This document shows positions 535 to 47,366 of a stretch of DNA of 63,913 nt, piece by piece. How positions within the stretch are numbered: position 1 is the first letter of the stretch; each line of letters begins with the position of its first letter. The stretch spans positions 1 through 63,913 of the forward strand of contig CAYZRT010000004.1 of assembly GCA_964480875.1 (NCBI GenBank). The letters are read 5' to 3'. This DNA comes from an uncultured Smithella sp. Its GTDB lineage: Bacteria; Desulfobacterota; Syntrophia; Syntrophales; Smithellaceae. The notes beneath the pieces are model-generated. The model did no database searches, was not told the DNA's origin, and worked only from the letters and a program-made list of their open reading frames with translations. Position numbers and translations under genes: made by a program.

Positions 535-2081
535 TGCGATTGCTGTTTATTAGACCGCCGAAATATATATGGCCCTACATGAATGAGCAGGACAACTATC
601 TGCTTCCTCAGGCGCTTGCCTGCCTTGGAGCGGAAACCAGACGGCAAGGTCATGAGGTCATCCTTTTGGATTGTATGCCGCTCAAGATAGGTTGGAAGAG
701 TCTCGAACAAAAAATAAGAGATCTTGCACCACAGGTAGTATTAGCGGGAGATTCGGAGACGCTGTACGCTCACGAAAGCGGCAGAGTATTTCAGATTGCT
801 AAATCCGTTTCAAAGAATATTTTTACAGTCGCGGGTGGCGTGCATTTTTCGTACACTTGTGAGGATGCTTTTTCAAAGTATCCCATTGATGCAATCGTAA
901 GAGGCGAAGGCGAAAAAACGCTTTCTGAACTTTTACAGACGTTGGAAGGTGGCGGTGATCTGACCAAGGTAAAGGGGCTCGCATTACCGGCCGGTGACGG
1001 TCGTGTGATATATACAGGTTATCGGGAATTAATTACCAACCTGGACGAACTTCCGATTCCTGCTTATGATTTGTTGCCGATGGATCGCTATGGGACGGCG
1101 CGCTATCTGTTTTCTCCGGGCGGTGTGACCATTCATCACAGTCGCGGATGCGTCAGCGGTTGCAGTTTTTGTGCGTGTTGGATTCAGATGGCTAAACGCG
1201 CAGGTGATCCGCCGAACGAGCAACTTTTCCCGCGCTGGCGCACCCGTTCCGTTGAACCCGTTGTTGATGAGATGGAACTTTTGCTAAAAAAATATGGTAA
1301 AAAATGTCTGGTGTTTGTGGATGATACTTGGAATGTCGACCCCGTGTGGAGCAACGGATTCGCCGATGAGCTACTGCGAAAAAAGCTTGGCGTGAACTGG
1401 TTTGCGTTTTTCCGCTCAGATTTTATGGTGAGAGACGAGGAATCAGGTTTGTTCGAGAAACTGATTGCGTCAGGGTTAACTCACATCTGTGTAGGTTTGG
1501 AAAGGGCAAATGATGAAGAGCTTGATAAGTTGGAGAAGCACAATTCAAATCCGGAATTGATGTTGTCATTCATCCCGAAGATGCGCAAAAAATACCCGTC
1601 GCTCTTTTTACAGACGACGTTTATCGTAGGGCTTAGGCAGGATACAAAGGAAAGCATGGAGCGACTGCTCAATTATGTTGAAAAGCTAAATCCTGACTAT
1701 CCCGCATTCCATCCGGTGACGCCCGTCCCCGGCACGCCGTTGTGGAAGGAAGCAAAGGGAAATGGATGGCTTGAGATAACGGATTTTGCAAAATACGATT
1801 GGATGACTCCGGTCATGCGCACAGATGCGATGACGCGCGAAGACTTGGAGTTAACGATTTGGGAGATGAACCGTCGCTATCTGAATCCGCTTCGGATTGC
1901 GCGGGGAATCTTTTCGCCGCGCAAATATCGTCGTCGGATGTATATGTGGTGGTTTGTGGTAAGCGTACGCGCAATTTTTGATTATTTGCTGGATCATCTG
2001 TTTATCCCACGCTCATCAAGGCGTGGCGAAAGTCTATCAGAGTATGTGGGATTAGTAAGACCCAAATGGTACAATAAATAG
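534..2081 (+). CDS. Class-B (cobalamin-binding domain) radical SAM enzyme
   Basis: The ATG overlaps the upstream stop (TAATG at 532-536). An N-terminal Rossmann-like B12-type domain (VVLAGDSE...VAGGVHFS...IVRGEGE) is followed by the CxxxCxxC motif HHSRGCVSGCSFCACW. Confidence 0.85.
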   Translation: MRLLFIRPPKYIWPYMNEQDNYLLPQALACLGAETRRQGHEVILLDCMPLKIGWKSLEQKIRDLAPQVVLAGDSETLYAHESGRVFQIAKSVSKNIFTVAGGVHFSYTCEDAFSKYPIDAIVRGEGEKTLSELLQTLEGGGDLTKVKGLALPAGDGRVIYTGYRELITNLDELPIPAYDLLPMDRYGTARYLFSPGGVTIHHSRGCVSGCSFCACWIQMAKRAGDPPNEQLFPRWRTRSVEPVVDEMELLLKKYGKKCLVFVDDTWNVDPVWSNGFADELLRKKLGVNWFAFFRSDFMVRDEESGLFEKLIASGLTHICVGLERANDEELDKLEKHNSNPELMLSFIPKMRKKYPSLFLQTTFIVGLRQDTKESMERLLNYVEKLNPDYPAFHPVTPVPGTPLWKEAKGNGWLEITDFAKYDWMTPVMRTDAMTREDLELTIWEMNRRYLNPLRIARGIFSPRKYRRRMYMWWFVVSVRAIFDYLLDHLFIPRSSRRGESLSEYVGLVRPKWYNK

Positions 2082-2096
2082 TTTTGAAGGAGATAC

Positions 2097-3425
2097 ATGA
2101 TTAATTACCATAATACACCCGCCATTATTTATGTTCATCCTAAGACACCCATGTTGTTTCGATGTATGCTCCCTATGTCGGTGCCAGCTATTATTAATAG
2201 AATCTCCTATCCTGTGGTTGGCTATTATCCTGATGAATTGCGTTTAGTTGATTTAAATAAGGTGAAAATAGTTATTATGGACATTCATTGGTATCTTTCT
2301 TTGAACGGTGCGCTTGAACTTGCTGCGTACATTAAAGAAAAAAAAACAAATATTATTATTATCGCGGGTGGATTGACGGCAAGCCTTTTTGCAGACATTT
2401 TGGTGAAAAATACGCCCATTGATTATATTATTCGTGGGGATGGTGAGGTTCCAACAGCACGACAGGTTGATGCGTTGATAAATGACAAAAATATAGAAAC
2501 AATTCCAAATCTTGTAGGGAAACATGAATTTGTTACCCCGTGGTCATTTAAGTTATCTCAAGAAGAAATAAATTTTAATAAGTATTATGATATTAATTTT
2601 TTTCCGTCGTTTAAGCGCGACACATATAAAATACATCAATACAACTCCGGTTGGCCGGTATCGATTTTTCCGTATTTGGCGTCATTTAGGGGGTGTCCGG
2701 TTGACTGTAAAAATTGTCTTGGCGGATTGTCTGAGCAACAAATACAGTTTAGGCGCGGACCGGTTTTTCGCACAGCGGAGAATGTGAAAAGAGATTTAGA
2801 ATTTTTATCAGACAATAAGAGCATTACTTTTGCAAATAATCATATAGATTACGTTGCTTTTTATGAAGATAAGGATGTGCAGTCTTTATTTTCACAGTGT
2901 TATAAATTAAAAATTCAACATGATTTCATAAAGGTGCCGCAAAAGCATATTTTAGAAATTTTTTTGAACAGTTTTTCAGGCGGTACAATTTGTTTTAGTA
3001 TGGACACATACCATTCAACATCAGAGATAATTGAAGATCCGGGAAAACTTATCGAAGCAATTAATATGGTTAAAGCAAAAAAATGGTACTATCCATTACT
3101 CTATTATGCGAGAAGATATCTTAAATCAAACAAAGAATACAGGGCAGCATTGAAATATATCGTTAAAAAAACACATTGTAGCCTGTATTATTCTGACTTT
3201 TTTTGGGGAGATGCTCCTTTTCCAAATAAGGAAGGGAATGGCGATATGTCGGAGTATGCCCGCTGTATGGCTATGTCACAAGGCCAAGGAAATAAATTCA
3301 AGGCGCCTAAACTTTTAGCAAACGGTGGTTTATTGGTGGATCGTTTTCTTCCGTGTTTGTCAATCCCTATACGACAATTAATTTACAAATGTCAAAATAA
3401 TTTTCCCTTATCTTTTTTTAAGTAA
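2097..3425 (+). CDS. Divergent radical SAM protein with a B12-binding-like N-domain
   Basis: IIIAGGLTAS...YIIRGDGE is followed by FRGCPVDCKNCLG (CxxxCxxC). It is much more diverged than the other paralogs and lacks their GxPGET C-terminal block. Confidence 0.65.
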   Translation: MINYHNTPAIIYVHPKTPMLFRCMLPMSVPAIINRISYPVVGYYPDELRLVDLNKVKIVIMDIHWYLSLNGALELAAYIKEKKTNIIIIAGGLTASLFADILVKNTPIDYIIRGDGEVPTARQVDALINDKNIETIPNLVGKHEFVTPWSFKLSQEEINFNKYYDINFFPSFKRDTYKIHQYNSGWPVSIFPYLASFRGCPVDCKNCLGGLSEQQIQFRRGPVFRTAENVKRDLEFLSDNKSITFANNHIDYVAFYEDKDVQSLFSQCYKLKIQHDFIKVPQKHILEIFLNSFSGGTICFSMDTYHSTSEIIEDPGKLIEAINMVKAKKWYYPLLYYARRYLKSNKEYRAALKYIVKKTHCSLYYSDFFWGDAPFPNKEGNGDMSEYARCMAMSQGQGNKFKAPKLLANGGLLVDRFLPCLSIPIRQLIYKCQNNFPLSFFK

Positions 3426-3461
3426 AAGATATTCTTGCTAAATCATCAATGGCGTTATTGT

Positions 3462-4274
3462 CTAAGAAGGCTGCCTATGGATGATTACGCGATCTACGAA
3501 CGGAGGAATTTCGCATGGCGGATTTTCATAATAGACGGTATTACCCCGGTAAATAAATCGCGTATTGTCACCGTGCGGAGTGAGCCGAAAATAACGTTCT
3601 GCGCAATGGTGTCGGCAGCTATAAATGCCAGGTATGCGTCCTGGACTCGTCAGCCGTTCGACGGGCTGGCAGAACCTTGTACTCGTTATATATACATATG
3701 GGGTGTGGAGACTGTACTCAAAGTCTGTCACGCCCACGGTGCCAAAACCCTGTTGCGGATTTTGTATTTCAATTCTCGACACATGTCGTTCTTTTAAAAA
3801 CCTTGCGAAAATTGGATTATTAACGGATATATGTTGAAACTCCGCTCGTTTTTTTTCAAGTTCCGACCCGTCGAACGCTGTGTCAAGTATTTCCATAATC
3901 CTGGGGTCACTTCGCTGAAAAGCGAGTATTATACCGGCGACAGGTTTAAGTCCTTTGAAATCTGTTGCAATCGTCGTGAGAAATCCGAGATCGTTAGCGA
4001 TGACCTCGGAACCTGGCGCTAAAGAAGTGAGCGTTTCAGCCAATGCAATTGCGTGTCCTATATGCGACTCCGTCAAATACGGCGTAACAAGGTGAAGACT
4101 AAGACCGCGCTCCTGCGCCGTCCAAATAAATCCAGCCAGTTCTTCACGGGTCGGTAAAGCCTCCTGACAAAACCCGCTGCCAACGTACACTCCGGTGAAT
4201 TCAGCTTTTCCGCAAGGCATCTCTGCCGCTCTCTCGATAAATATTTTTTTATCCGGTTCTTTCTTTTCAGCCAT
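3462..4274 (-). CDS. U32-family protein, small UbiV-like partner
   Basis: 270 aa. GVYVGSGFCQ...LHLVTPYL...VIANDLGF...VAGIILAF follows the layout I recall for UbiV (VIYLGEAVCS...VLSTLAL...IEASDLGV...VAGHALN). It lies 30 nt downstream of the larger U32 gene. Confidence 0.55.
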   Translation of the reverse strand: MAEKKEPDKKIFIERAAEMPCGKAEFTGVYVGSGFCQEALPTREELAGFIWTAQERGLSLHLVTPYLTESHIGHAIALAETLTSLAPGSEVIANDLGFLTTIATDFKGLKPVAGIILAFQRSDPRIMEILDTAFDGSELEKKRAEFQHISVNNPIFARFLKERHVSRIEIQNPQQGFGTVGVTDFEYSLHTPYVYITSTRFCQPVERLTSPGRIPGIYSCRHHCAERYFRLTPHGDNTRFIYRGNTVYYENPPCEIPPFVDRVIIHRQPS

Positions 4275-4304
4275 CTGCTTTCAGGATTTCGCTCCGCTCA
4301 ATTT

Positions 4305-5432
4305 TTATTTGGTAATTTTATCAATCCCAAAGTTTATAACCTCTTTCTTATCCGGCTCGCAGTAGTAGCAGAATCCTTCGCCGCAGTAATTGGGATAGAG
4401 ATCCATTCTCATTTTTTTAACTGTATTCGTGTATTCGAGGCGGGACGGATTGCTTTTTAGCAAGGCTAGGGCGTCGCGCACCATGCGCGTGTCCGCACAC
4501 TTACGAGACGTTAGATTCTGGCGTCCAACAATCTTTACCGACTCTACGCCGGGCACCTGCACGATGTCATACAGTGCACAAAGACCGCATGCCTCGCGAA
4601 AATTATTCAGTGTATCAAAAAATCTGAAATTTAGTTCTGATGCGAGTACCTTGCCGTCTACCGCGTTTACCAAATCCGCTTTATATTCCCTGCAGCACAT
4701 CATTCCATTGCAGGCCGCAAACCTGTCCTGAATATGGTTAATTAGCCGATTTCGGTAAGTGCCGAAAAGGAAGGACATCTTGCGGCCAAGTAAACATTGT
4801 GCCAGCGCAGCCGCGTATGTAAACAAACCACCTTTCACCCTGTATGTTGCATGCTCGAATCGGCACAACGAATTCGGGAAATAACAGCGTTCTGACATTA
4901 TGAAAACTTCGAACCCGGTTTGGGGGCATGCCGCCGCCGTATCCGCGATCTCGCCTATGGTAAGATGCCGCGGCAGCGTAATTCGTGAAGCACCAAAATC
5001 GCGGTACAGCCGCACTGTATGAGAATTGAACGCCCCCCCGAACGTACTGATAATAACTTTTACACCAGGATATTTTTCATTCAAATAAGTAATCAACGCG
5101 ATATCGGCAACGATCAGGCCGTCAGCTCCGCAGGCGATGATCTTCTCAACCTCCGATTCAACCACCGAAAACTGTGCTTTCGTGTAGAACGCATTATAAG
5201 TAACGTATGTTCTCATTCCGTGCTGCCGCGCCGCCGCAACAATCTCAGACAGCTCATAGAAGTCTGAGAGATTTGCTTCCGGTACCTGCCGTGAATTCAA
5301 CGAAAACACGTTTGTATATTCCCGCTGCACTTCGCGGCGCATTATTCCACAGTATAGCTCTGTTGCGCCGGCCGCATGTAACGGTCCGACTTCGCTCAAA
5401 CTGTTTATAGGTGAAAGAATTTCCATATTCAT
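4305..5432 (-). CDS. U32-family protein, UbiU-like large partner
   Basis: 375 aa. The N-terminus MEILSPINSLSEVGPLHAAGATELYCG and the block GADGLIVADIALITYLNEKYP...ITLPRHLTIGEI...FEVFIMSERCYFPNSLCRFEH parallel UbiU (LEVFAFGSLCIMSEGRCYLSS). Confidence 0.75.
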   Translation of the reverse strand: MNMEILSPINSLSEVGPLHAAGATELYCGIMRREVQREYTNVFSLNSRQVPEANLSDFYELSEIVAAARQHGMRTYVTYNAFYTKAQFSVVESEVEKIIACGADGLIVADIALITYLNEKYPGVKVIISTFGGAFNSHTVRLYRDFGASRITLPRHLTIGEIADTAAACPQTGFEVFIMSERCYFPNSLCRFEHATYRVKGGLFTYAAALAQCLLGRKMSFLFGTYRNRLINHIQDRFAACNGMMCCREYKADLVNAVDGKVLASELNFRFFDTLNNFREACGLCALYDIVQVPGVESVKIVGRQNLTSRKCADTRMVRDALALLKSNPSRLEYTNTVKKMRMDLYPNYCGEGFCYYCEPDKKEVINFGIDKITK

Positions 5433-5489
5433 TCCATTTTTGAATAAGCTGTTCTGTTTATACTTTACATCTGGTTTTCCGCATTTCTG

Positions 5490-6260
5490 CTATGCCGGTC
5501 GTGCGGGCTTAGCTGTTTCATAACATATTGAAGCCCGCGATCTGGTTGTTCGGCAGTCAATTCCCAGTCCAGCCATCAAACCTGTGACCTTTTTTTCAGG
5601 GAGCGCGTTTCGTATCGAAAGCGCGAGCGCCGTTTCACCTTTGCTCGACAGCCCGATCCGATCCTTCATTTTCACATAAGCTGCATACCCTCTTGCAAGA
5701 AGCGATTCAGGATTCAAGTCGACAATAACAAGATTGCCGCCGGGTTTGAGTACGCGCCACATTTCCGAAATCATCCTGCGCGCGTCCTCGAAATGATGAA
5801 GAGACGCCTCCGAATAAACAAGATCGAAAACATCCGCAGCAAACGGCAGCGAATTGTCATCATTACGGACAAGTATCACCCGGGTGCCCATATTGGGTTT
5901 GTTCACCTTGGTTGCGAAACGGAGCATCTCCGGATCGATGTCGCAGCCCGTAACCAGAACGCTTTCTTTTGTGAGGCCGATTATTTGCTGTAACGTTAAC
6001 CCGGCACCGCATCCAACTTCCAGAACTGACATCGCATGACAGTGATTCATAAACCGGAGACATATCTTACGTGCATGACGCGAAGGGCGTTGTTTGTTCC
6101 TGTAAAGAAAAAATTCTTCTGTAGTCATCCCTTCTTTATTTATGATGCTCATTTGACCGATTTCTCCTATTTGACTTGCATTAACTTCTTTATAACATCC
6201 GCACATATGCGTTCTGTTAAAGATTATATATTCCCGCGCCGATTGAATTGTGACCCGCAA
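5490..6260 (-). CDS. Class I SAM-dependent methyltransferase (UbiE/Methyltransf_11-like)
   Basis: Motif I is VLEVGCGAGL, followed by VTGCDIDPEM and LKPGGNLVIVD. The real start may be the internal ATG at 6152 (MSIINKEG). Confidence 0.8.
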   Translation of the reverse strand: MRVTIQSAREYIIFNRTHMCGCYKEVNASQIGEIGQMSIINKEGMTTEEFFLYRNKQRPSRHARKICLRFMNHCHAMSVLEVGCGAGLTLQQIIGLTKESVLVTGCDIDPEMLRFATKVNKPNMGTRVILVRNDDNSLPFAADVFDLVYSEASLHHFEDARRMISEMWRVLKPGGNLVIVDLNPESLLARGYAAYVKMKDRIGLSSKGETALALSIRNALPEKKVTGLMAGLGIDCRTTRSRASICYETAKPARPA

Positions 6261-6550
6261 GCAGAATCTTATATAGAATTTCGCCCGCCGATATAATGGA
6301 ATAGATGACGGACTTCAAAAAGTCGGGTAGATAAAAATATTTTGCGGAGGAAAGTATAGGAAGTACGATTTTGTATGTCAACAATTTATTGCTAAAATGG
6401 AATTAATGGAATTAATAAACTTGTAATTCATTAGGTGACATGATAATTTCTCTAATAAAAAAATATAGATAAATAATTTCACGCTGTGGTCTCCGCCTCA
6501 GGGGAATAAACTGCATAAATGAATATCAGTATGAACTTATTTTTAAAAAC

Positions 6551-8005
6551 ATGAATAACACCCTCCCTAAAAAACATAGGGTATTATTGATCGTACCTGT
6601 TCCATCATCCAGATATAATCAATTTACCATCAATTATTATGCTCCAAATATCGGTTTGGCAAGCATAGCAGGGTATTTGATTGAAAAAAATATTGAAGTA
6701 GAAATTTTTGATGGAATTATTGATTCAAGCTTAAGAAATTTGTATAAAAAAATAGAAAGCTATACTCCAACACATATAGGAATTTCAGCTTTCACTTCAA
6801 ATATAAAATCGGCATGGAAGACAGCTCAAGCTATTAAAACTAAATTTAATCAAATCCCAATAACTATTGGGGGACTTCATGTATCAGCATTACCGGAAGA
6901 GTCGCTGGCAGAATGTCCTTATGTAGATTATGTCATCGTTGGCGAAGGCGAAGAGAGCTTCTATTCTTTATTGGAAAATATAAATACTCCACAAAATTTC
7001 AATAAAATAAAGGGGCTGGGCTACAGAATTAATTCAAAAATAATCATAAATCCTCCTTCCGATCATTATCATATAAATATGGATACTTTGCCTATGCCTG
7101 CTTGGCATTTATTCGATTGGGATAAATACAAGGAATACCCTTTCAGGGATAAGCATATCAATTCTAATCCTCATGAATTTCTTCTACAGACAACAAGAGG
7201 CTGTCCCTATTCATGTAAATTTTGTTCTCGTAATTTTGGGAATAAAGTCAGACAAAAATCACCTAATATAGCGGTTGATGAAATTTCAGTTTTGATAAAT
7301 TCCTTTAATGCAAAATATCTGCTTTTTGTGGATGAAACATTTACTATAAACAAAGAATATACAAAAAATCTTTGTAACCTTATTATTAAACGTGGTCTAA
7401 ACAAGAAGATCTCATGGTCCTGTGGAACTAGAATTGATAAATTGGATAAGGAAATATTAACTCTAATGAAAAATGCGGGATGCGTAAGTATTTTTGTGGG
7501 TTTGGAATCCGGATCACAAAAAATATTAAATTTAATAAATAAAGGTGTTAAAAAGAGCTGTTTTTCTAATGCGTTGAAGAATATAAAAGAACAGGGAATT
7601 AGTACAGTAACAAGTTTTATTTTGGGATTTCCTGGTGAAACCAAAGAAGATATAAAACAAACCATAGATTTATCACTTACTTTACCATTGGATTTTGTTT
7701 CATTTAATATTTTCACCCCGTTTCCAGGTTCAGAATTTTACAAAACCATATCTGTCTCAGATACTATCACTCTTAAAACACACGATTGGGATCGTTATGT
7801 AACACAAACTGGCTCATATCAGTTAAACCAGCCATCTATAAGAACAATAGATATTATTATATTGCATATACTTGCTTACTTAAGATTTTATCTTAGAAAA
7901 AATTGTTTTCATAAAATCTTTCAGATTATTAACATTAAAGTGCTATTTTATTTGCTAATAAATAAAATAACTGCAAAGATTTTTGCGGATCCCTATGAGG
8001 AATGA
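6551..8005 (+). CDS. Class-B (cobalamin-binding domain) radical SAM enzyme
   Basis: RVLLIVPVP...ITIGGLHVSALPEE...VIVGEGEE, then TTRGCPYSCKFCS, then FILGFPGETKEDIKQT...FTPFPGSEFY. Very AT-rich coding sequence. Confidence 0.85.
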   Translation: MNNTLPKKHRVLLIVPVPSSRYNQFTINYYAPNIGLASIAGYLIEKNIEVEIFDGIIDSSLRNLYKKIESYTPTHIGISAFTSNIKSAWKTAQAIKTKFNQIPITIGGLHVSALPEESLAECPYVDYVIVGEGEESFYSLLENINTPQNFNKIKGLGYRINSKIIINPPSDHYHINMDTLPMPAWHLFDWDKYKEYPFRDKHINSNPHEFLLQTTRGCPYSCKFCSRNFGNKVRQKSPNIAVDEISVLINSFNAKYLLFVDETFTINKEYTKNLCNLIIKRGLNKKISWSCGTRIDKLDKEILTLMKNAGCVSIFVGLESGSQKILNLINKGVKKSCFSNALKNIKEQGISTVTSFILGFPGETKEDIKQTIDLSLTLPLDFVSFNIFTPFPGSEFYKTISVSDTITLKTHDWDRYVTQTGSYQLNQPSIRTIDIIILHILAYLRFYLRKNCFHKIFQIINIKVLFYLLINKITAKIFADPYEE

Positions 8006-8048
8006 ATCGTAACCAACCTGGTACGACGTAACATTATATCTTGCGTAT

Positions 8049-8495
8049 TTATGGTAATATGATGTCTTGGCAATGTGTTACGTCCATATAGCGCAATTTG
8101 ATAAAAGTATAAATGAAAACACAAATGAATGTAGCAGTTACAAACATTGCGTTGGGAATTGGATTAAATAATAACCTGCAATAAACAATAAACAAATATA
8201 CTGCAAAGATGAATGTGATTTCTTTATTATACTTAACCATGCCGACCCATCCTATTATTTGCAGTATTGCCCGAACCCAAAATCCTATATGCATAGCCCA
8301 TTTTAAGTCATTTGAAAGAACAAGAATGAAAAGAAAAAAACCATACCATAGTTGCTCACGCGGCAGTTTTTTCTTAACAAAGAAATAAATGCAAAAAAAT
8401 ATGACGGTAGTATAAGACCAGCCGCCCATTAATAAAAATGGAGCAATATTGTCATTGATGTAGAATAGACTTAACGACCGCCAATTCATGTTCAT
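8049..8495 (-). CDS. Small polytopic membrane protein, unknown function
   Basis: 148 aa with about 4 hydrophobic helices by eye. It is third in a run of three small membrane ORFs on the minus strand. Confidence 0.55.
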   Translation of the reverse strand: MNMNWRSLSLFYINDNIAPFLLMGGWSYTTVIFFCIYFFVKKKLPREQLWYGFFLFILVLSNDLKWAMHIGFWVRAILQIIGWVGMVKYNKEITFIFAVYLFIVYCRLLFNPIPNAMFVTATFICVFIYTFIKLRYMDVTHCQDIILP

Positions 8496-8506
8496 TGCGG
8501 CAGTTT

Positions 8507-8929
8507 CTATTGGTATGCATATGAAGATCGAAAAAACGCTGCAAATATGACGAAATTTTTATAATCCCTTACTGTTTTTGGGTCAATCAGCTTATTTACA
8601 AACTCGTAAGCTAAATAAAATGTAAAAATCCAACCAACGGGGATAAAAATAGGCACATTCAAAAGCTTTATTGGCATATTGGGAAATTCATAAGAACGGA
8701 TAAATGAAAAATAATAAAATTCACGTACAAAACCGAACAGAAATCCTCCTACGAAAAACTCAAAAGTAAATCTACAGCCCTTGGTCAATAGGCTATGGAT
8801 GATCATTATTGAAAAGGCTATTCCTACGGATATGATAAATACTTCAAGCTTAAGCATGGGGTTGCCTCGTTTTATTGATGCGATACGTGATGGCAAAAAA
8901 CAATACAAGAGGCAGCAATGTAAGTCCAA
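8507..8929 (-). CDS. Small polytopic membrane protein, unknown function
   Basis: 140-aa ORF. The likely start is the internal ATG at 8857 (MLKLEVFIISVG), which overlaps the stop of the upstream 65-aa ORF by 8 nt. It has hydrophobic helices and a VPIFIPVGWIFTFY motif. Confidence 0.5.
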   Translation of the reverse strand: MDLHCCLLYCFLPSRIASIKRGNPMLKLEVFIISVGIAFSIMIIHSLLTKGCRFTFEFFVGGFLFGFVREFYYFSFIRSYEFPNMPIKLLNVPIFIPVGWIFTFYLAYEFVNKLIDPKTVRDYKNFVIFAAFFRSSYAYQ

Positions 8930-9047
8930 TCTCGACAGAAGACAGCAGAATGGCTACATAAATAATAACACCGCAAAAAATTAAAATAACAGAAAAAAGC
9001 AGAAGGTCTAAAATCATATTTTTTCTTTGCATTAATATTGGCCTCAA
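8850..9047 (-). CDS. Small (65 aa) two-helix membrane protein, hypothetical
   Basis: Two hydrophobic stretches (LLLFSVILIFCGVIIYVAILL, LTLLPLVLFFAI). Its position suggests translational coupling with the next ORF. Confidence 0.35.
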   Translation of the reverse strand: MRPILMQRKNMILDLLLFSVILIFCGVIIYVAILLSSVEIGLTLLPLVLFFAITYRINKTRQPHA

Positions 9048-9061
9048 ATTACTTATAATTT

Positions 9062-9288
9062 TTTATTGTGAGACTCAAATTTCAAAAGCGTAGCGCATTG
9101 AAATTTGTAAGTCGAACAATCCCGCACAGCGGAGGGTAATGAAACCCAAACTTCAGAAAGAGCGCGTAAGGAAGCTTGTAGGTCGAATGATCCTACCTAT
9201 GCATGGATATATACCCTGCCCCTTGGGGCGTAATTAGGTTCCAGTCCCGATAGCAATCGGGATTGCCCTGGGGTTCATACCCGTGATT
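9062..9288. repeat. Structured dispersed repeat, copy A (two hairpin units plus a 78-nt 3' module)
   Basis: Units A1 (9068-9117) and A2 (9138-9188), each followed by a short hairpin. The 3' module 9211-9288 differs at only 4 of 78 positions from 26960-27037. Confidence 0.75.
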
Positions 9289-9320
9289 TTCGTATCTGAT
9301 ACCCTTTTTCGCTATAAATA

Positions 9321-10781
9321 TCAAAATAATTTGTTTTGAAAGAAGTTTCTGGCCAGGAGAAATGTAATCTTAAATAACGCTTTGATATACATTATCGCCT
9401 CGGGGAAAGTGCGTATATTAAACAAATGGCGAAGAATAAAGGATGGACGAAAATAAAAATCGCGGTAACTTTTCAAATAGTATTTTTTAACAGTTTTATC
9501 AGATATCGTATCTAATTTTAAAATAGGTTGGCCCAGGTTATAAAGGTCCCAGTGATAATGCAAAAGACCATTTTTGCTGAAGAATTCTTTATACATGGCT
9601 GTTCCCGGATAAGGCGTGGTAATATTGAAGACAGCAAATTTAAGTCCGGCGTTTTTGGCAAATTTTATTGTTTTATCCATGCTGGCTTCCGTTTCTCCCG
9701 GACTGCCAAGCATGAAAGCTCCACGAATGTCTATCTTTGCTTTTTTCGTCCATTCGATTGCGTTTCGGGATTGCATTAGGTTGGTATGCTTATTAATGTT
9801 TTTTAAAATGGTTTCATTTGCCGTCTCAAAACCGTACATGATTTGGTGGCAGCCTGCTTTTTTCATAAGAGCCAGCAATTCCGGGGTTACGGTATCCACC
9901 CTCGCAAAACATGACCAACTGATTTTAATTCTCGTTTCCAATATCAACTGACACAATCCGGAGACGTTTTTTTTATTGGCCGTAAACGTGTCATCATAAA
10001 AGGATATCTCTCTAATATTGTATTTTTTTTGTAAAAGCTCAATATGTTGAACGATTCTTTCCGGAGAAGTGAATCTGATTGCAGAACCAAACATTCCCGA
10101 AAAACAGAAAGCGCACTTTCCGGGACATCCCCGGGATGTTACCATTCCAATGGATGGATTTTGTCTTGCCGCACCTAAGGCAGAATGATACAAGTGCATG
10201 GGTAGTTTTTCGTAAGCGGGGAACGGCAACGACTCTAGGTCCACATATTCTAAAGCATCAGGATTTATAATGACGTCATGTTGCTGATTTCGCCAGGTCA
10301 AATTGGGGATAAGATGCAACGGCGTTCCTTTGGCCAACTCAGTGATAAAGGCTTCGCCTTCGTTCCGCACAGCCATATCGCAAATTTTATCCCGCACAAG
10401 ATCTTCATGGAAAACCGTTGGGTGAACCCCTCCCATGATGATTTTGATATCTGGAAATATTTTACGTATGCCACGGGCGATTGAAGCGGCGCTGGAAATT
10501 TCCGGCGTCGTCGCGGTAAGTCCGATATAATCCGTGACGGGATTTATTCTTTCAATAATTTCCTGAACACTGAGTTTTAAAGCAGCCGCATCAATGATTT
10601 GCGATGTCTGTCCCTGCTTATCCCAGATTGCGGCCAGCAGCGCCAATCCCAGCGGAGGAATGTCGGAATTAATCACACTCCATATGTTATTATGGTTTAT
10701 TTTTCTTGGCGGATTAATGAAGGCAATATTCATAAATAATTGATTATAATTTATAGTATTTTTGTTATTTTTTTTGAACAA
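9321..10781 (-). CDS. Class-B (cobalamin-binding domain) radical SAM enzyme
   Basis: IFPDIKIIMGGVHPT...MAVRNEGE, then TSRGCPGKCAFCFSG, then FMLGSPGETEASMDKT...TTPYPGTAMY. The start may be ATG 10733 (MNIAFINPP). Confidence 0.85.
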   Translation of the reverse strand: MFKKNNKNTINYNQLFMNIAFINPPRKINHNNIWSVINSDIPPLGLALLAAIWDKQGQTSQIIDAAALKLSVQEIIERINPVTDYIGLTATTPEISSAASIARGIRKIFPDIKIIMGGVHPTVFHEDLVRDKICDMAVRNEGEAFITELAKGTPLHLIPNLTWRNQQHDVIINPDALEYVDLESLPFPAYEKLPMHLYHSALGAARQNPSIGMVTSRGCPGKCAFCFSGMFGSAIRFTSPERIVQHIELLQKKYNIREISFYDDTFTANKKNVSGLCQLILETRIKISWSCFARVDTVTPELLALMKKAGCHQIMYGFETANETILKNINKHTNLMQSRNAIEWTKKAKIDIRGAFMLGSPGETEASMDKTIKFAKNAGLKFAVFNITTPYPGTAMYKEFFSKNGLLHYHWDLYNLGQPILKLDTISDKTVKKYYLKSYRDFYFRPSFILRHLFNIRTFPEAIMYIKALFKITFLLARNFFQNKLF

Positions 10782-11445
10782 TAAGAATCAGAGATTGTCC
10801 CACGGGAGGTCTGATGATTTTTTCTGCAAGGCATAAAAAAGGAACAATTTTGTCGAATAATATTGTCTGTTTTACCGGTAGTTCTTTCTTTTTGAATATT
10901 CGTCCATTGACAAACCAGCCCAATAAACCGAGGAAATTCATATAAAAAAAATCAACTATTTTTAAATTTTTATCGTTGATCAGCAGCTTTAAATCTTTTT
11001 TATTATATCGATGTAAATGATTGAAAGAAACATCCATTGAACCATAAAGTGTTTTTAAAGCAGGCACAAGAATGATTAACTTTCCTTCTCTGTCCAGGAT
11101 AGAGATCATATTATCAATGGCTTTATAGTCTTTTTCTAAATGTTCAAGGATGTTAAGACAGAGTATCGTATCGAATTTTTTATCGGCAATGGAAGATAAT
11201 GTGATGTTTTGAATATCGATATTGAAAACATCAAAATTTAACTTGTCACGAAATGAATATTTGGCATTTAAATAATCTATATAATCCTGATTTATATCAA
11301 TAAGCGTTAAATTATTTTTGAATATAATGAAATCGGTAATATTGCCTATCCCGGCGCCCACTTCCAAAATATTATTGCCAATATGATTATGAATATTATC
11401 GTATATCCAATAATTATAATTAAAGCGTTCGGATAATAACAGCAA
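10765..11445 (-). CDS. Class I SAM-dependent methyltransferase
   Basis: Motif I is ILEVGAGIGNITDF, followed by FDTILCLNILEHL and GKLIILVP. The 3' end overlaps the ORF of the downstream radical SAM gene. Confidence 0.8.
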   Translation of the reverse strand: MLLLSERFNYNYWIYDNIHNHIGNNILEVGAGIGNITDFIIFKNNLTLIDINQDYIDYLNAKYSFRDKLNFDVFNIDIQNITLSSIADKKFDTILCLNILEHLEKDYKAIDNMISILDREGKLIILVPALKTLYGSMDVSFNHLHRYNKKDLKLLINDKNLKIVDFFYMNFLGLLGWFVNGRIFKKKELPVKQTILFDKIVPFLCLAEKIIRPPVGQSLILIVQKK

Positions 11446-11773
11446 AGATTGTTTTATTTTATCAGCGCCGGTGTTTATGCTTTCTATTTTATAAATCCTC
11501 CAACTGGTAACATTTGGCGTGTATTATACTCGTCGCAGGATGATTTGCAAAATATTTATGAAAAAAATGTTGCAATAGTTGTTAAAAAACTAAATAATCG
11601 CTCAAACAAATTTTAAATGCAAAATACCACCAGAGGACTTTTGTCGAGCTCAACACAGATGATCCTTAAATTATGATTTGCCAGACGCATTTTTTTAATT
11701 GTTGTTAATTTATTATTATCGAAGGAATTCTAAGATTAATACCTTAAGATTTTAAAATGATTTAAATTTATTT

Positions 11774-13408
11774 ATGGATTTGCCGGAATTGTCATCAAAA
11801 GAATCCCCCTGCGCTGGATATAGACAGCGCGCTTATTGCTTCTTCAACCGATTAAATATCTTTGATCTATTGGTAATCATTATCTGCATAGCAAGTTTTG
11901 GATTCAGTTTAATTGAGTCGATGGTTAACGCGGATAATCAGCATTGGGGCGGCGTTTATTTACAGGCCCTGGATATTAAAAGAGGAGCAATGCCGCATTC
12001 CGAAGTAATGATTTTCCATGGATATATTCACGCGTTGATTCAAAGCGCTGCGTTAATATTATTTGGCGAAAGATTAATAAGCGTGGGAATAATCACGGGG
12101 CTATTTTATTCTTTTACGTTATTTCTTTCGTATTGTATTTTTTCCAGATTTATGAAAAAGAGTCTTGCCTTTATTGCCGTATTGTTAATCTTTTTAATTC
12201 ATCCTTACATTATTTATCCTTATCCTAATTATTTTGCCTATCCTTTTCAACTGCTGGCGCTTATTTTTTTTCTGCGATATCCGGAACAACATTTAAATGG
12301 TTTGCTGGCCGGATTTTTCCTGGGCTTGTCGGTACTTGCGCGGTATTCTTCGGTTATAGCGGTTCTTCCGCCCTTTATAAGTCTTCTTCTATGGGATTTC
12401 TTTGCCATGAAAGAAGAGAGAAAAAACGCCATTAATAAAATCGTTACAGTAGCCTGCGGTTTTCTTGTTCTTTTGGCTTCTTTTTTTTTATATCTCTTCG
12501 TTAACTCCGCCCTGGATGATTTCTATAATCAGAATAAGATACTAATCACTATCCTGGGAAGAGTCAGTGACGCTGATACCTGGCTTAATTTTTTAGCCTC
12601 TGTGTTTCAAGTTGTCCCGAGTTACGCTTCCGATTTACGTGGTAAGCTCTTTACTTTCATATTAATAGTCTGCCTGTTTATACCGGTTCGGGAAATCATC
12701 AGGAAAATATCAGGGGGTGTAACAAAGTCGGTATATGCCCGTTATGATGTAATAGCTGTGTGTCTTCTGGCTATTTTCGGGTATTTGAATTCGGTGCACG
12801 TTTATGAAACATTACGACTGATTAACGGCGCGTCTTTAGGCGTTGGAATATGCGTTCTGGTTTTCTATAATATTTTCAAGAATGCAGGAAAAAAAATAAA
12901 ATATGTAATGTTATTTTTGATTATTCTTTTATTTTTACTTTTATCATCCAGCCTCTTGTTCAGCAGAACCACGTCATCCTATTACCCGTGGAGCCTGAAT
13001 GTTTTATTGCGTGATGGAGTGACGAACAAAACTATCGGAATATTTAAAGGTAAAATTCTTACCAAAGAATACAATGATTTTTATCAGGAAGTATTTAATG
13101 TCATTGCGCCGTATAAAAATTGTTGTTACATACTTAATTATACGCAGGATGTAGTAGCTTTTTTGGTCAATGATTTGCCTCGCCTCCAAATATCGGGTGT
13201 GCACTTTCCCGGTATTGACGATCTTTCTAAACAGGAGAAATTAATTCATCAAAACAAGGCAGTGATACTTTCATTTATAAAATTGGATTTGCCTGGTTAC
13301 TCTTTAATATTTGCCAGGAGATGGCCGGAGGAAATACCGTGGATGGGTGGCGGGTATTTATTCATATATGCGCCAAAACTCCAAGCATGCGGTATTCAAT
13401 CCTTGTAA
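11774..13408 (+). CDS. Large polytopic membrane protein, GT-C-like (ArnT/PMT-type) candidate
   Basis: 544 aa. The first ~400 residues contain more than 10 hydrophobic segments by eye, followed by a soluble C-terminal domain. No catalytic motif could be verified by eye. Confidence 0.5.
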   Translation: MDLPELSSKESPCAGYRQRAYCFFNRLNIFDLLVIIICIASFGFSLIESMVNADNQHWGGVYLQALDIKRGAMPHSEVMIFHGYIHALIQSAALILFGERLISVGIITGLFYSFTLFLSYCIFSRFMKKSLAFIAVLLIFLIHPYIIYPYPNYFAYPFQLLALIFFLRYPEQHLNGLLAGFFLGLSVLARYSSVIAVLPPFISLLLWDFFAMKEERKNAINKIVTVACGFLVLLASFFLYLFVNSALDDFYNQNKILITILGRVSDADTWLNFLASVFQVVPSYASDLRGKLFTFILIVCLFIPVREIIRKISGGVTKSVYARYDVIAVCLLAIFGYLNSVHVYETLRLINGASLGVGICVLVFYNIFKNAGKKIKYVMLFLIILLFLLLSSSLLFSRTTSSYYPWSLNVLLRDGVTNKTIGIFKGKILTKEYNDFYQEVFNVIAPYKNCCYILNYTQDVVAFLVNDLPRLQISGVHFPGIDDLSKQEKLIHQNKAVILSFIKLDLPGYSLIFARRWPEEIPWMGGGYLFIYAPKLQACGIQSL

Positions 13409-13582
13409 ATGAATTCAATACATTGATCCTGTGAATTTCTATGAGGCATGAAAATGGTTTACGTCTAGATGTCGGAGATGCTTCTGATAAAGCAAAGGTT
13501 TTTTGAAATTGAATTTTTGCTAATAATGCAACCAAAAGAACTGATGAACATTGCGCCATTATGAAATTTTGTTAGTGATAGT

Positions 13583-15238
13583 ATGAAAAAAATCAATGTG
13601 CTTATATTAATCATATTGCCAGCAGTTCTTGTATTGACCGTTTCACTTTTAAAATATTCTCGTGGTTCGTATTGGTTGGTTCACAATTCTGATCCTGGAT
13701 ATATTTATTTATTAAACTCTCTTGCATTGGCTGAATCAAAAAAAGCGCCAACCACTGGTCATCCTGGCACAACCCTTCAAATAGCGGGGGCAGTTATAAT
13801 GAAAACTTTTTATGCTCTTGACTATTCTAAAAAGGAAAGTCTGAAAATCGAGGTTCTTAAGAATCCTGAATTCTATTTAAATATTATACACATTATTTTA
13901 ATAACTTGTAATGCTCTGCTGCTATTTATCATTGGCGTGATAACATTTAATTTAACAAAAAATATTTGGCTGAGTATTTTGTTGCAGTTTTCACCGTTCA
14001 TTTCCACGGTCATGCTGAATCTGGGTTTCGTATGGATTTCTCCCGAACCACTTCTGATTTTTTCCAGTCTGTTGTTTGTGTTGATTCTTGTAAAAATTGT
14101 ATTGAATAAAAATTATTCCGAATCAACTCACTGGTATATGATAGCCTTTGCGTTTATTTCCGGTTTTGGGATCGCTACGAAGATGACATTCCTTCCTTTA
14201 CTGATGATTCCTCTTTTTATTTTGCCTAAATTACGACACAGGATTGGTTTTATTTTTTTGGCCGGCTTAAGTTTTGTTTTATGGACATGGCCGATTATTC
14301 CGCAATATGATATTTTATTTAAGTGGTATTGGCGTATCCTTACGCATACAGGTTATTATGGCCTCGGTGAACAAGGCATAATTGATTCTGGGATTTTTTT
14401 TCGCAATATAAGTAATTTATTTTTAGGGAATCCTTTATTTTTTTTCGTCTGGTTTTTTGCTCTGAGTTTTATTCTCATTATTTTATTGTTGAGACATAAC
14501 AAATTCATTGAGAAAAAAGTCTTGGATAATACATCTTTTAAGGTATTAATTGCCTCGCTGTTTGTGCAATTGTGTGCCGTTTTGATTTTTTCTAAGTCGG
14601 GTTACGACTACTATTATTTGCCTGTGATGAACCTTTCTGCATTAATGATTTTTTTGATGATTGTTTATTTACAGGAGATTGAAGTCAAGTTTCTAAGTAG
14701 TACAGGAACTGTTATGATTATATGTATATTCTTGTTTTTCGGCAGTGTTTGGAGAGCGGCTGAAATCAAAGATGTATTTATAAAAAATCTGCAAAATAAG
14801 CGGGAAGGACAGGGGGTCTTTCAAGCGCTGGAGAATGATTATAAAAATTATTTTAAAATTTCTTGCTATCGTTGCTCATCTCCGATTTGTGCACTATCTT
14901 TCGGTAATTTCTTTATTAATAATGGCCTGTATTCCGAATCTCTTCAAGATATTTATGGGGAAGCATATTTTTATGATAGACGTGAAGGGAAATTTCATTC
15001 ATGGACTAAAGAGTTTACTGTTGAGGATATAATTATTCAAAGCCAGGGTAATAGAATATTAATTCATGCCCCCTTTTTTATTAAAGAACATGGCTTCATG
15101 CTGCCGACGAGGACGGGTTCAATTTTGCATCTAAAGGATGTCTTTGGGGGAGAATTTGAATCTATTTATATGCTCAAAGGAATTGCAATAGGTGCTGGAA
15201 AATTTCAGCCGTTTAGTTTGTCGCCTGAACCGAAATGA
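13583..15238 (+). CDS. Large polytopic membrane protein, GT-C-like (ArnT/PMT-type) candidate
   Basis: 551 aa. An early periplasmic-loop acidic motif (HNSDPGYIYLLNS) follows the first TM helix, then many TM segments and a soluble C-terminal domain. Confidence 0.55.
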   Translation: MKKINVLILIILPAVLVLTVSLLKYSRGSYWLVHNSDPGYIYLLNSLALAESKKAPTTGHPGTTLQIAGAVIMKTFYALDYSKKESLKIEVLKNPEFYLNIIHIILITCNALLLFIIGVITFNLTKNIWLSILLQFSPFISTVMLNLGFVWISPEPLLIFSSLLFVLILVKIVLNKNYSESTHWYMIAFAFISGFGIATKMTFLPLLMIPLFILPKLRHRIGFIFLAGLSFVLWTWPIIPQYDILFKWYWRILTHTGYYGLGEQGIIDSGIFFRNISNLFLGNPLFFFVWFFALSFILIILLLRHNKFIEKKVLDNTSFKVLIASLFVQLCAVLIFSKSGYDYYYLPVMNLSALMIFLMIVYLQEIEVKFLSSTGTVMIICIFLFFGSVWRAAEIKDVFIKNLQNKREGQGVFQALENDYKNYFKISCYRCSSPICALSFGNFFINNGLYSESLQDIYGEAYFYDRREGKFHSWTKEFTVEDIIIQSQGNRILIHAPFFIKEHGFMLPTRTGSILHLKDVFGGEFESIYMLKGIAIGAGKFQPFSLSPEPK

Positions 15239-15395
15239 GAAATAGTGCAAAACACTCTTTAATTTATGTTGTTATATTGTATTTAAATCATCGTAATAAA
15301 TATGATTCAATCTTATTTAAAATACATTATTTTGTTTTTCTTTTCATTATTTCCGATTTTTTGTTGAAACAACGGAGGAGAATCTTTTATTATTT

Positions 15396-16451
15396 ATGAA
15401 AACTGCAATGGAAATGGCGCAGGGACTTATCCGCGCCAAATATTTCTCAGCTCCGTTCTATGCACACTTTTATGTTACCGAACAATGTAATCTCCAATGT
15501 AAAATGTGTAATATCTGGAAAAGAAAATCAAAAGAGATGACCATAAAGGAAATAGAGCAGTGCGCGAAAATTCTTAAAGAGCTGAAGGCACAGAATATCG
15601 TGATAACCGGCGGAGAGCCTCTTCTTCGACCGGACATAGCGGATATCGTCATGTTATTGCATGATTATGGATTCTCCATAAGGCTTCAGACGAACGGGAC
15701 TCTCATCACAGAAAGAAAAATCAGAGCCTTAACCGAAGCCGGATTGCAAAACATTACCATTTCACTCGATACGCTTGATCATGAGAAATTTGACTGGATT
15801 TGCGGCTCAAAAGATATTCTGCAAAAAGTTGAAAAATCACTGGATATTGCTGCTGACTATATGAAAGGTTTTATTGTGGTAAACATTGCCGTTTCCAGAA
15901 TAAATATTTCCGAGCTGCCGGATATTGTCCGATTTGTGCATTCTAAAGGTGCGTATGCTTCCATTGTTCCTGTGCATTTGCAACCGGATAAAAGTAATCA
16001 GGGTTTTTGTTACGGCTATCATCAGGAAATGCTTTTTTCAAATGAAGCGCTGTCCGAAATAGAAAAAGTCTATGCGGAAATTATGAAAATGAAGAAAGAG
16101 TCATACAGAATCATCAATTCCAGAAAATTTTTAAAAGCCTCTCTCGATTATTTCCGCACAGGCGATTATTCATGGAATTGCAAAGCCGGAGAAAGATTTT
16201 TTGTTGTTTATCCCGATGGCGGCGTCGCCCCTTGTGATGTATTCCCTGCTTTGTTTAATATAAAATCGAACGGCTTGAAAAAATTCCGGAGCGCCGACTA
16301 TCAGGAAAGCGTCAGGCATCTGAGAGAAGGATGCAGCGGTTGTATGATAGGTTGTTGGAGGGAAACAAACCTGTTTATTGATGATTTTGTCACGAGGATG
16401 GAGCACATGCAGCTTTACTTTAGAAAAAAAACAGGTACGCATCATCAATAA
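15396..16451 (+). CDS. Radical SAM protein with a SPASM-type C-terminal Cys-rich domain
   Basis: YVTEQCNLQCKMCNIW (CxxxCxxC) and GGEPLLRPD are followed by the C-terminal block CKAGERFFVVYPDGGVAPCD...CSGCMIGC. There is no B12 domain. Confidence 0.8.
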   Translation: MKTAMEMAQGLIRAKYFSAPFYAHFYVTEQCNLQCKMCNIWKRKSKEMTIKEIEQCAKILKELKAQNIVITGGEPLLRPDIADIVMLLHDYGFSIRLQTNGTLITERKIRALTEAGLQNITISLDTLDHEKFDWICGSKDILQKVEKSLDIAADYMKGFIVVNIAVSRINISELPDIVRFVHSKGAYASIVPVHLQPDKSNQGFCYGYHQEMLFSNEALSEIEKVYAEIMKMKKESYRIINSRKFLKASLDYFRTGDYSWNCKAGERFFVVYPDGGVAPCDVFPALFNIKSNGLKKFRSADYQESVRHLREGCSGCMIGCWRETNLFIDDFVTRMEHMQLYFRKKTGTHHQ

Positions 16452-16459
16452 GGGAATTA

Positions 16460-17920: not shown

Positions 17921-17977
17921 CAATGAATCATAATAAAAAAGATTAATATAAGAATTTATGACCTGTATTTCATTGAC

Positions 17978-26083: not shown

Positions 26084-26117
26084 AATATTTTTGGTGCTAG
26101 AACATGAAGGCAGAAAA

Positions 26118-26897: not shown

Positions 26898-27037
26898 AGG
26901 TCACGCGTTGAAATTTGATAGTCGAATCCCGACCTTGTCGGGACACAGCGGAGGGTATAATACCCCGCCCCTTGGGGCGGAATTAGGGTCCAGTCCCAAT
27001 AGCAATCGGGATTGCCCTGGGGTTCATACCCGTGATT
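26853..27037. repeat. Structured dispersed repeat, copy B (one hairpin unit with a 20-nt loop insertion plus the 78-nt 3' module)
   Basis: Unit B1 is 26860-26927, the GC hairpin is 26928-26942 and the 3' module is 26960-27037. The loop insert 26889-26908 is the exact reverse complement of 47314-47333. Confidence 0.75.
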
Positions 27038-47296: not shown

Positions 47297-47366
47297 ATTA
47301 AATGTAGGGATTGACGCGTGACCTTTAGGTTATCCCCCGATCAATCCGCAAGATAACTGACAGGCT

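Follow-up and report, generated by a model that had tools for sequence, protein, structure and literature searches.

Covarying hairpin repeats in an uncultured Smithella genome: a probable new family within a known class of small mobile elements

The 63,913-nt stretch of DNA considered here (the window; GenBank contig CAYZRT010000004.1, contig C4 below) comes from an uncultured Smithella sp., and raises the question of what is represented by five hairpin units of about 50 nt, lying at three places along it, whose stems differ between copies but stay complementary. The first-pass annotation of the window, made from the letters alone, took the units as a sign of selection on a folded nucleic acid and left two possibilities, that the units are a small structured RNA or that they act as single-stranded DNA hairpins to which a protein binds, in the manner of repetitive extragenic palindromic (REP) sequences and bacterial interspersed mosaic elements (BIMEs). 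We have followed the family through the whole genome (3.13 Mb in 235 contigs, 43.8% G+C, 90% complete), through the genus and into other phyla. That selection acts on the folded single strand is strongly supported, both by covariation and by near-universal features outside Watson-Crick pairing; of the two readings the evidence favours the DNA hairpin of REP/BIME-like kind, and nothing so far shows a discrete RNA or a dedicated RNA gene. The repeat appears to add a new family to a known class of small mobile elements, and we hold with moderate confidence that the hairpins are modules of a non-autonomous, structure-defined mosaic mobile DNA repeat, similar in kind to IS200/IS605-derived miniature elements or REP/BIME elements, that is moved as folded single-stranded DNA.

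Fold and covariation of the hairpin unit

On inspection of the sequence all five units (A1, A2, B1, C1 and C2) and the 3' module common to the A and B loci lie where the annotation had placed them, and the 78-nt module, described as shared with four differences, is indeed 95% identical between the two. The hairpins are real and also longer than had been supposed, as beneath the ACT/AGT stem there is a tandem G·A (TGA opposite GAA) and then a further closing helix, which reads ATTGT/ACAAT in units A1 and B1, whereas A2 and C1 have TAAT opposite ATTA or ATGA. What had been read as a conserved loop is really a 2-bp mini-stem closed by a GNA triloop (A/G-C-GNA-G-T/C), the mini-stem of which itself covaries. 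B1 proves to be an A1-type unit plus two small inserts, ATAACCTAAAGGTCACGCG in the loop and TCCCGACCTTGTCGGGA 3' of the hairpin, and the GTCGTA ascribed to the end of C2 belongs to a junction with a third, nested partial unit that starts as TAGTGACAC at 63828.

From its base upward, the unit consists of a closing helix of 4-5 bp (TAAT/ATTA, TAGT/ACTA or ATTGT/ACAAT), the tandem G·A (GA opposite GA), a 4-bp helix (GAC, CAC, GTC, GCC or AAC with its complement) with 2 nt bulged out of the 3' arm next to it, a variable stem some 10 bp long for which subfamilies have wholly different sequences, and, at the top, a purine-rich internal loop, the 2-bp mini-stem and the GNA triloop. The tandem G·A occurs in 132 of 153 near-full-length units, and was itself the filter that selected the 130 distinct units, each of exactly 57 nt, that make up our gap-free alignment. 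In that alignment standard pairs fill 92.0% of 2600 cells, a share that drops to 27-37% when the 3' partners are slid by one to three columns. All 20 pairs have changed on both sides (674 such cells), none of 500 shuffles equalled the observed pairing or covariation score, and RNAalifold independently returned 17 of the 20 pairs; the covariation that the annotation had read from five units is thus statistically supported throughout the helix.

Differences between close copies are found mostly in the flank, triloop, loop and bulge, and copies no more than 6 differences apart show 59 double changes that keep the pairing and 97 breaks on one side only, so that compensation is far above what neutral decay would leave. 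The units form 70 clusters at ≤6 differences, with a median distance of 22 of 57 nt, and the family is as such old or fast-evolving. An adenine-specific or otherwise unusual mutation spectrum was considered and set aside, the substitution spectrum being ordinary (59% transitions). The 3' module has a covarying closing stem of its own (GGGTAT/ATACCC, GGATATC/GATATCC, GGCTATC/GATAGCC, GGGTAC/GTACCC) and holds one to three hairpins, one of which varies between CCGCCCC-TT-GGGGCGG and CCGCAGC-TT-GCTGCGG; GTGAT follows the module in nearly all copies, and GTGAC in a few.

Only the given strand is able to form the tandem G·A, purine-rich loop and C-GNA-G tip, and GCGAAGC is an unusually stable DNA mini-hairpin. 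Folded as DNA and set against shuffles, the composite element at the A locus gave z = -5.4 on the plus and -4.6 on the minus strand. A hammerhead or kink-turn was entertained for the TGA...GAA core and rejected on inspection, as the helix below covaries, no 3-nt bulge adjoins and the hammerhead CUGA is absent; a tRNA-like origin was likewise dropped when ARAGORN returned no match.

Copies, insertion sites and the elements of the window

The annotation had allowed that the family might have no further copies in the genome. Iterated nhmmer searches of the whole genome gave 239 hairpin units and 32 modules at 188 loci: a single unit at 110, two units at 35, three at 3 and four at 1, a unit with the module at 19, two units with the module at 5, the module alone at 7 (most of those examined being truncated derivatives or cut by a contig end), and mixed orientations at 8. 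These counts are a lower bound, since many contigs start or stop within a unit. Word depth in the DNA metagenomes that contain this strain (about 14 for unique flanks, 2600-2900 for the unit, about 410 for the module) is consistent with roughly 200 unit and 30 module copies. By a crude gene call that makes 86% of the genome coding, 88% of loci lie outside open reading frames (ORFs) of at least 100 codons. Their orientation with respect to genes is random (46 run with the flanking genes and 43 against them, 30 lie between divergent genes and 19 between convergent ones).

Unit and module together make up one element with sharp ends. An alignment of 24 genomic copies places its 5' end at (TTT)ATTGTGAGACTC... 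and its 3' end at ...GGGGTTCATACCCGTGATT, with no terminal inverted repeats and a target duplication that is absent or at most 3 nt; elements start with TA(A/G)TGA or ATTGTGA and end with GGGAT or GTGAT. In its minimal form the element is the 57-nt hairpin and, 3' of it, a GC-rich hairpin like those at IS200 ends; longer forms close with the 3' module. Empty sites are evidence of mobility. In the pdxS-hisF spacer a unit-plus-module element is present in this genome only, and the site is empty in 12 other species (TAATTTT / ATTATAAT), the alignment reading ...CTTAATAATTTT / ATTATAATAC... in the latter and ...TAATTTTATT[GTGAAAC...ACTAGTAATT]ATAATAC... here. The element at C24:11598 is missing from three species, in which the site reads ...TTTTATT / CATATTG..., as against TTTTATT[GTGAGA...CCCGTGATT]CATATTG in the filled state. 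The target is TTTTATT at both empty sites, its ATT trinucleotide being either duplicated or the element's own. Two further loci appear empty in a relative, with spacers too diverged for the exact ends to be set, and no empty alleles were found in the source metagenomes, where contigs break at the repeat. Type-1 copies are preceded by TTTATT, and type-2 units show a mild preference for T only. Two ideas on insertion were discarded: insertion after intrinsic terminators, suggested by Bacteroidales copies, applies to just 5 of 160 arrays here, and a search for carriage by phages or plasmids gave a single chance match in viral contigs, which does not fold, and none in plasmids.

Copies also enter one another. 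At 12 loci examined, nesting has occurred between GTCG and AATTATCC of the outer unit, and further cases are seen after CAAATTT of a type-1 unit and, in an Omnitrophota genome, at the position of the bulge; short deletion derivatives retain just the two ends. Two smaller modules, ATAACCTAAAGGTCAC and a mini-hairpin of the form TCCCGAT-loop-ATCGGGA, occur both in loops and by themselves. The genome matches the core word of the B1 loop insert at 39 places; 17 lie in or beside units or modules, and as this is under half the ~20-nt module looks like an independent tiny mobile module. The TCCCGACCTTGTCGGGA pattern of the mini-hairpin, palindromic in most copies, gave 132 matches over both strands (about 66 sites), 54 of them in or beside units or modules. 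A solo copy of the ~20-nt module ATAACCTAAAGGTCACGCG stands at 47314-47333 of the window (minus strand), and ACCCTAAAGGGCA, a sister of its core word, has 22 genome matches.

A covariance model detected the unit in each of the 24 other sampled species of the genus, in numbers (1, 2, 5, 6, 9, 10 up to at least about 140) that differ more than 100-fold; the alignment of the pdxS-hisF spacer suggests that the low-copy genomes form one clade. In other families of the order the unit was found in 1 of 16. A scan of one genome per species for the exact pattern TAATGAGAC, 38-40 nt, GTCGAATTATCC, for which about one chance match is expected, gave 28 loci in metagenome-assembled genomes (MAGs) labelled Candidatus Omnitrophota, Bacteroidales, Bacteroidia, Flavobacteriales, Planctomycetia, Syntrophaceae and Deltaproteobacteria. 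All 28 match the model over its full length, with variable stems that are complementary and lineage-specific; 96.9% of the cells of the cross-phylum alignment are paired, and 19 of the 20 pairs show double changes. The Smithella-trained model, which gives lower bounds in such genomes, counted at least 64 and at least 37 matches in two Omnitrophota genomes, at least 33 and at least 6 in two of Bacteroidales, at least 7 and at least 1 in two of Planctomycetia, and at least 15 in another deltaproteobacterial genome. Taxonomy here is that of the MAG labels; stems specific to each lineage, and host contigs that are long, speak against mis-binning.

The nhmmer matches in the window, 9063-9137, 9137-9197, 26855-26956, 63654-63727 and 63777-63828 for units and 9211-9287 and 26959-27036 for modules, are the complete set of family members there, and Table 1 gives the elements as we now delimit them. 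The ends of element A were set by the 24-copy alignment together with the empty sites at two other loci; it is flanked on the 5' side by AATTTTTT, starts as ATTGTGAGAC and ends as CCCGTGATT. The structure of A1 is reproduced by both DNA and RNA minimum-free-energy folds, while A2 is built from TAAT/ATGA (one mismatch), the tandem G·A, AACC/GGT(A) and the stem CAAACTTC/GAAGCTTG (one mismatch). The hairpins inside the B module are CCGCCCC-TT-GGGGCGG and CAGTCCCAAT-AGCA-ATCGGGATTG, and the short module of C1 is GGCTATC-GAA-GATAGCC (0-based offset 63720 of contig C4).

Table 1. Elements of the hairpin family in the window and their parts
Feature	Position	Strand	Composition and remarks
Complete composite element A	9065-9288	+	Type-1 unit, small hairpin, type-2 unit, small hairpin, 3' module
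Unit A1 (type 1)	9065-9120	+	ATTGT/ACAAT, tandem G·A, GACT/AGTC, TA bulge, 10-bp stem CAAATTTCAA/TTGAAATTTG, GCGTAGC apex
Short GC hairpin CCGC-ACA-GCGG, then AGGG	9121-9136	+	Resembles the end hairpins of IS200-like elements
Unit A2 (type 2)	9137-9190	+	nhmmer E = 2.9e-7
3' module M of A	9211-9288	+	CTGCCCC-TT-GGGGCG, CAGTCCCGAT-AGCA-ATCGGGATTG, tail GGGGTTCATACCCGTGATT
Complete composite element B	26857-27037	+	Type-1 unit with inserts, then 3' module; 5' flank CTCATTT
Mini-insert TATAACCTAAAGGTCACGCG	26888-26907	+	In the apical loop of B1; a separate small repeat
Mini-hairpin TCCCGACCTTGTCGGGA	26927-26943	+	Sits where A1 has CAATCCCGC
3' module M of B	26953-27037	+	Closing stem GGGTAT (26953-26958) with ATACCC (27026-27031); element end GTGATT
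Element C1	63656-63747	+	Type-2 unit 63656-63709, hairpin CCGCC-TGA-GGCGG, short-form 3' module, end GTGAT
Unit C2 (type 2)	63779-63827	+	Interrupted after GGTCG by the next unit, like the nesting at 12 other loci
Partial nested unit TAGTGACACTCGTTGAGCGTGAGAGAACCGCGAGG	63828-63862	+	Absent from the first-pass annotation; matches the 5' half of units such as C27:17297

Several observations concern the genes and repeats around the units. In the window, an ORF for a glycosyltransferase of family 2 (26091-26897, plus strand) reaches 41 nt into element B; as its final 13 codons and its stop codon are repeat-derived, the C-terminus has apparently been replaced by the insertion. Within window positions 1-19936, and in the genome generally, units sit inside apparent housekeeping operons, for instance in the pdxS/hisF spacer and upstream of atpC, and on contigs C24 and C157 some runs of minus-strand genes hold a plus-strand unit in every spacer. 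A composite element at C22:29156-29301 adjoins the start of hisH, about 2 nt from the CAT of its reverse-strand ATG, and since it abuts the start codon the original 5' leader of hisH must have been displaced. Other dispersed repeats lie beside units (C157:4790-4860, C157:4935-5100, and locus L131 of the relative G017), among them a type that reads GTCATTCCCGAC...CGGGAATCC (ATTCCC-N-GGGAAT) and two conserved blocks, one running through GAGCCAAGAGTAGACTTGACCCC, that have many matches in genomes of the genus at 86-96% identity. At C162:112-946 a gene for a 124-aa four-helix-bundle protein, which to the eye resembles proteins encoded in the intervening sequences of 23S rRNA, lies between inverted units; it was dropped as a partner of the unit, having only 3 copies in the genome and no consistent association.

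A possible mobilising enzyme and alternative readings

If the hairpins are modules of a mobile DNA repeat, as we favour, it is reasonable to postulate that the given strand would be peeled out as single-stranded DNA, that its hairpins and G·A platform would be read by a trans-acting transposase of the HUH/Y1 type, belonging to the IS200-like elements of the genus, and that the excised strand would be joined in beside T-rich sequence. The covariation would then follow, as copies that had lost the fold could no longer propagate. The link to IS200 comes from the ends of such elements. One member of the genus has a multicopy IS200-like element that inserts after TTTAT and carries terminal hairpins; its left end is a composite hairpin, ATAGCCAC...GTGGCTATCC, that reads like the base of the unit (TAG-TGA-CAC...GTG-GAA-CTATCC) without the G·A insert, and on the right it ends in a GC hairpin and then AGGTTCAC. 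In an IS200-like element of another member the left end, GGGTATAATTCCCCACCGCTTGCGGCG, agrees with the start of our module, GGGTATAATACCCCGCCCCTTGGGGCGG, at 24 of 28 positions, and the right end, ATACCCCGCTGCTTGCGGCGGGGTTGTTCAT, agrees at 19 of 21 with both differences complementary, the tail GGGGTTCAT being shared. The GC hairpin 3' of each unit (ATCCC...GGGAT) likewise belongs to the type found at the ends of IS200-like elements. These matches, though short, fall exactly at both functional ends of the insertion sequence. Y1 transposase genes are, moreover, present in 20 of 26 genomes of the genus and in 7 of the 8 carrier genomes that belong to other phyla. In one genus member (G016, e.g. loci L136-L141), 7 of 9 strong IS200-like tnpA matches, in copies otherwise almost identical, carry the same in-frame TAG, which could mark a spreading pseudogene or a recoded or read-through stop.

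A number of findings weigh against this reading. The IS200 matches reach BLAST E values of just 0.014-0.047 per query, with 32 queries, and the analysis brought up no autonomous element that shares the outer ends. No Y1 transposase (PF01797) is present in this 90%-complete genome, nor did the search for a RAYT/TnpA(REP) gene, which the annotation had called for, find one there; a 98%-complete relative in the genus with more than 126 units has no Y1 gene either. No unit lies within about 2 kb of any of 14 Y1 genes in the genus, while 3 of 30 Y1 loci in the other phyla are near a unit, all in one Omnitrophota genome (3 of its 5 loci), with an intervening gene in both of those whose ORFs were listed. 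TnpB (PF07282) was not found in this genome and is absent from the genus, 26 genomes having given one fragmentary and one sub-threshold match, and a TnpB/IscB guide-RNA scaffold, considered for the 3' module, was not borne out by Rfam either, which gave no HEARO or other match. Insertions of IS200/IS605 elements normally follow the direction of replication, and on a 2.09-Mb contig of a near-complete relative the two orientations are intermixed and roughly equal among the matches listed, as counted by eye and not by a skew profile. The ends of such elements normally carry similar hairpins, and the 57-nt hairpin and the GC hairpin are unlike each other. Finally, the diversity of the units (70 clusters, median distance 22/57) is unlike a recent burst, and the fold could have been selected in place. 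A resident multicopy insertion sequence was also sought as the mover and rejected, as just one two-copy transposase-like protein came to light, which by eye we take to be a DDE type of the IS1182 or IS5 kind. As some high-copy genomes have no Y1, no Y1 gene is flanked by units and there is no strand bias, both another mobilising activity and a role as RNA keep a share of the probability, small in each case.

The first of these, which we regard as unlikely, holds that the hairpin is a mobile module moved by an enzyme that is neither Y1 nor TnpB, and that the IS200-like hairpins were picked up secondarily; a reverse transcriptase, a recombinase of folded DNA (as the integron integrases are) or a host replication or repair activity would be doubtful but conceivable movers. 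It would explain how units reach high numbers in genomes without a Y1 gene, why Y1 genes are not flanked by units and why there is no bias in chromosomal position, and the succession of helix, unpaired spacer, bulged helix and variable tip is like that of integron attC sites, whereas the attC signature itself (AAC...GTT boxes, cassette arrays) is absent. The core TAATGAGAC...GTCGAATTATCC is found in four phyla with stems that are lineage-specific, and compensated changes are frequent even in close copies, but no neighbouring protein recurs at the 28 loci of the four phyla, no true copy was found on viral contigs or plasmids (the lone viral match does not fold), the substitution spectrum is the ordinary one noted above, and no candidate enzyme was found. 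Taken to its conclusion, this alternative would make the 57-nt hairpin the working part of an undescribed, cross-phylum class of self-propagating modules whose enzyme is neither Y1 nor TnpB, a proposal we would entertain only tentatively; it is similarly a long shot that recognition goes by the tandem G·A, the bulge and the GNA tip with the IS200-like hairpins as mere passengers, and we would give little credence to the corollary that the modules insert into T-rich DNA and into each other regardless of the direction of replication or transcription.

A second alternative, slightly weaker still in our estimation, is that the units specify a structured RNA in many copies, acting as small RNAs or, within mRNAs, in cis as stabilisers, processing sites or protein-binding platforms; in what is an equally improbable elaboration, the tandem G·A and purine-rich internal loop would be the features read by an RNA-binding protein, and the spread of the copies as DNA would be secondary. 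The very strong covariation, the retention of the fold despite high sequence diversity, and the tandem G·A, bulge and GNA triloop that form on one strand only are all what such an RNA would show. As the orientation to genes is random, however, read-through transcription would yield the non-folding strand half the time, and we found neither a conserved promoter upstream of the units, where the 5' flank is just mildly T-rich, nor a T-run downstream of them. The evidence from wobble pairs is divided. The annotation had held that G-T pairs mark the plus strand, and this stands for the module, in which the G·T pair of the stem CAGTCCCGAT/ATCGGGATTG is conserved; it does not stand for the units of this genome, in which G·T (40 of 2600 cells) and A·C (47) are equally rare, and there is as such no RNA wobble signature in them. 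The cross-phylum set has 21 G·T against 5 A·C, in an alignment that had been fitted to the model. More than 100 metatranscriptome contigs from wetland and peat hold unit-like sequence, but these come without strand or end information and may contain DNA, and the neighbouring gene of this organism was not present in any RNA run searched. The annotation could match the unit to no known RNA family, and Rfam bears this out, with nothing at gathering score in the window, chance-level matches only at the locus under permissive E values up to 10, and nothing at E up to 0.1 at 8 loci from other phyla. Furthermore, all comparable loci are species-specific and empty in relatives, and the copy number within the genus ranges from 1 to at least about 140.

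Least probable of all is that the copies are mostly immobile relics retained for a DNA-level role, as sites for nucleoid proteins or topoisomerases or as domain boundaries of the kind proposed for BIMEs: their intergenic position, roughly even spacing (about one locus per 17 kb), preservation of fold at high sequence diversity and the want of a transposase in this genome able to move them would fit, but the sites are not conserved across species, one clade of the genus lives with 1-10 copies, and the nested and truncated copies resemble the debris of insertion.

Comparison with known systems

The family is not described in Rfam or in the literature that could be searched by word or by sequence. 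Its nearest counterparts are the non-autonomous derivatives of IS200/IS605, palindrome-associated or miniature elements that are moved in trans, as single-stranded DNA, by the Y1 HUH transposase TnpA. Like them, the repeat has no terminal inverted repeats (the ATT at the two empty sites could be a 3-nt duplication or the element's own end), is associated with a T-rich word, TTTAT/TTTTATT, which is also that of the IS200-like element in the genus, has hairpins near both ends, and gives rise to deletion derivatives that keep the ends only; the ends of the IS200-like element of a genus member are similar, in the short matches given above, to the GC hairpins and 3' module described here. Unlike them, it has a large 57-nt G·A hairpin without a described counterpart, two end hairpins that are dissimilar, an architecture that is modular, tandem and nested, high-copy genomes some of which are without Y1, and no bias in chromosomal position, and no full-length element with these ends was found.

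A second comparison is with the REP, REPIN and BIME elements, which reportedly go with RAYT transposases, as set out by Bertels and Rainey in 2011. Here too there are hundreds of extragenic copies, a hairpin held by compensatory change, several unit types and linker motifs in a mosaic, and an abundance that differs greatly between related genomes. The 5' GTAG of REP sequences begins about a quarter of our units, for which the usual 5' end is TA(A/G)TGA. The unit with its 57 nt and second hairpin is larger than a REP of 20-40 nt, however, and it occurs mostly singly or in direct tandem and not as the inverted pairs of REPINs and BIMEs: of 188 loci, 110 hold a single unit, 44 are arrays of units alone in one orientation, 24 close with the module and 8 are mixed. 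Furthermore, none of the 14 Y1/RAYT genes of the genus is flanked by units, and the same core is found in four phyla, whereas REP families are usually specific to a species or genus.

The BOX element of Streptococcus pneumoniae, composed of boxA, a variable number of boxB and boxC, offers a parallel in grammar: a start module, variable internal hairpin modules and an end module, in hundreds of intergenic copies with strong predicted folding. There is no relation in sequence, the phylum is different, and our repeat has no terminal inverted repeats. Integron attC sites, which are recognised by their fold and not by their sequence, resemble the unit in having a helix, an unpaired spacer, a helix with bulged bases and a variable tip; they differ in that the unit lacks the AAC/GTT core boxes and closes with TAAT/ATTA or ATTGT/ACAAT, and in that units are scattered among housekeeping genes and form no gene-cassette arrays.

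Small hairpin repeats make up a sizeable share of the intergenic DNA of many uncultured bacteria, and few families of them have been studied (REP/RAYT, BOX, Correia, ERIC). Those described here alter the ends of genes, split operons and break metagenome assemblies, as is apparent from the many contigs of this genome that end in a unit, and a model of the family would aid the annotation of Smithella-type syntrophs, Omnitrophota and Bacteroidales. With covariation at every pair, a near-universal G·A platform, a modular grammar, clean insertion sites and a distribution over four phyla of anoxic habitats, it is a good model for the spread of structure-defined DNA modules without a resident transposase.

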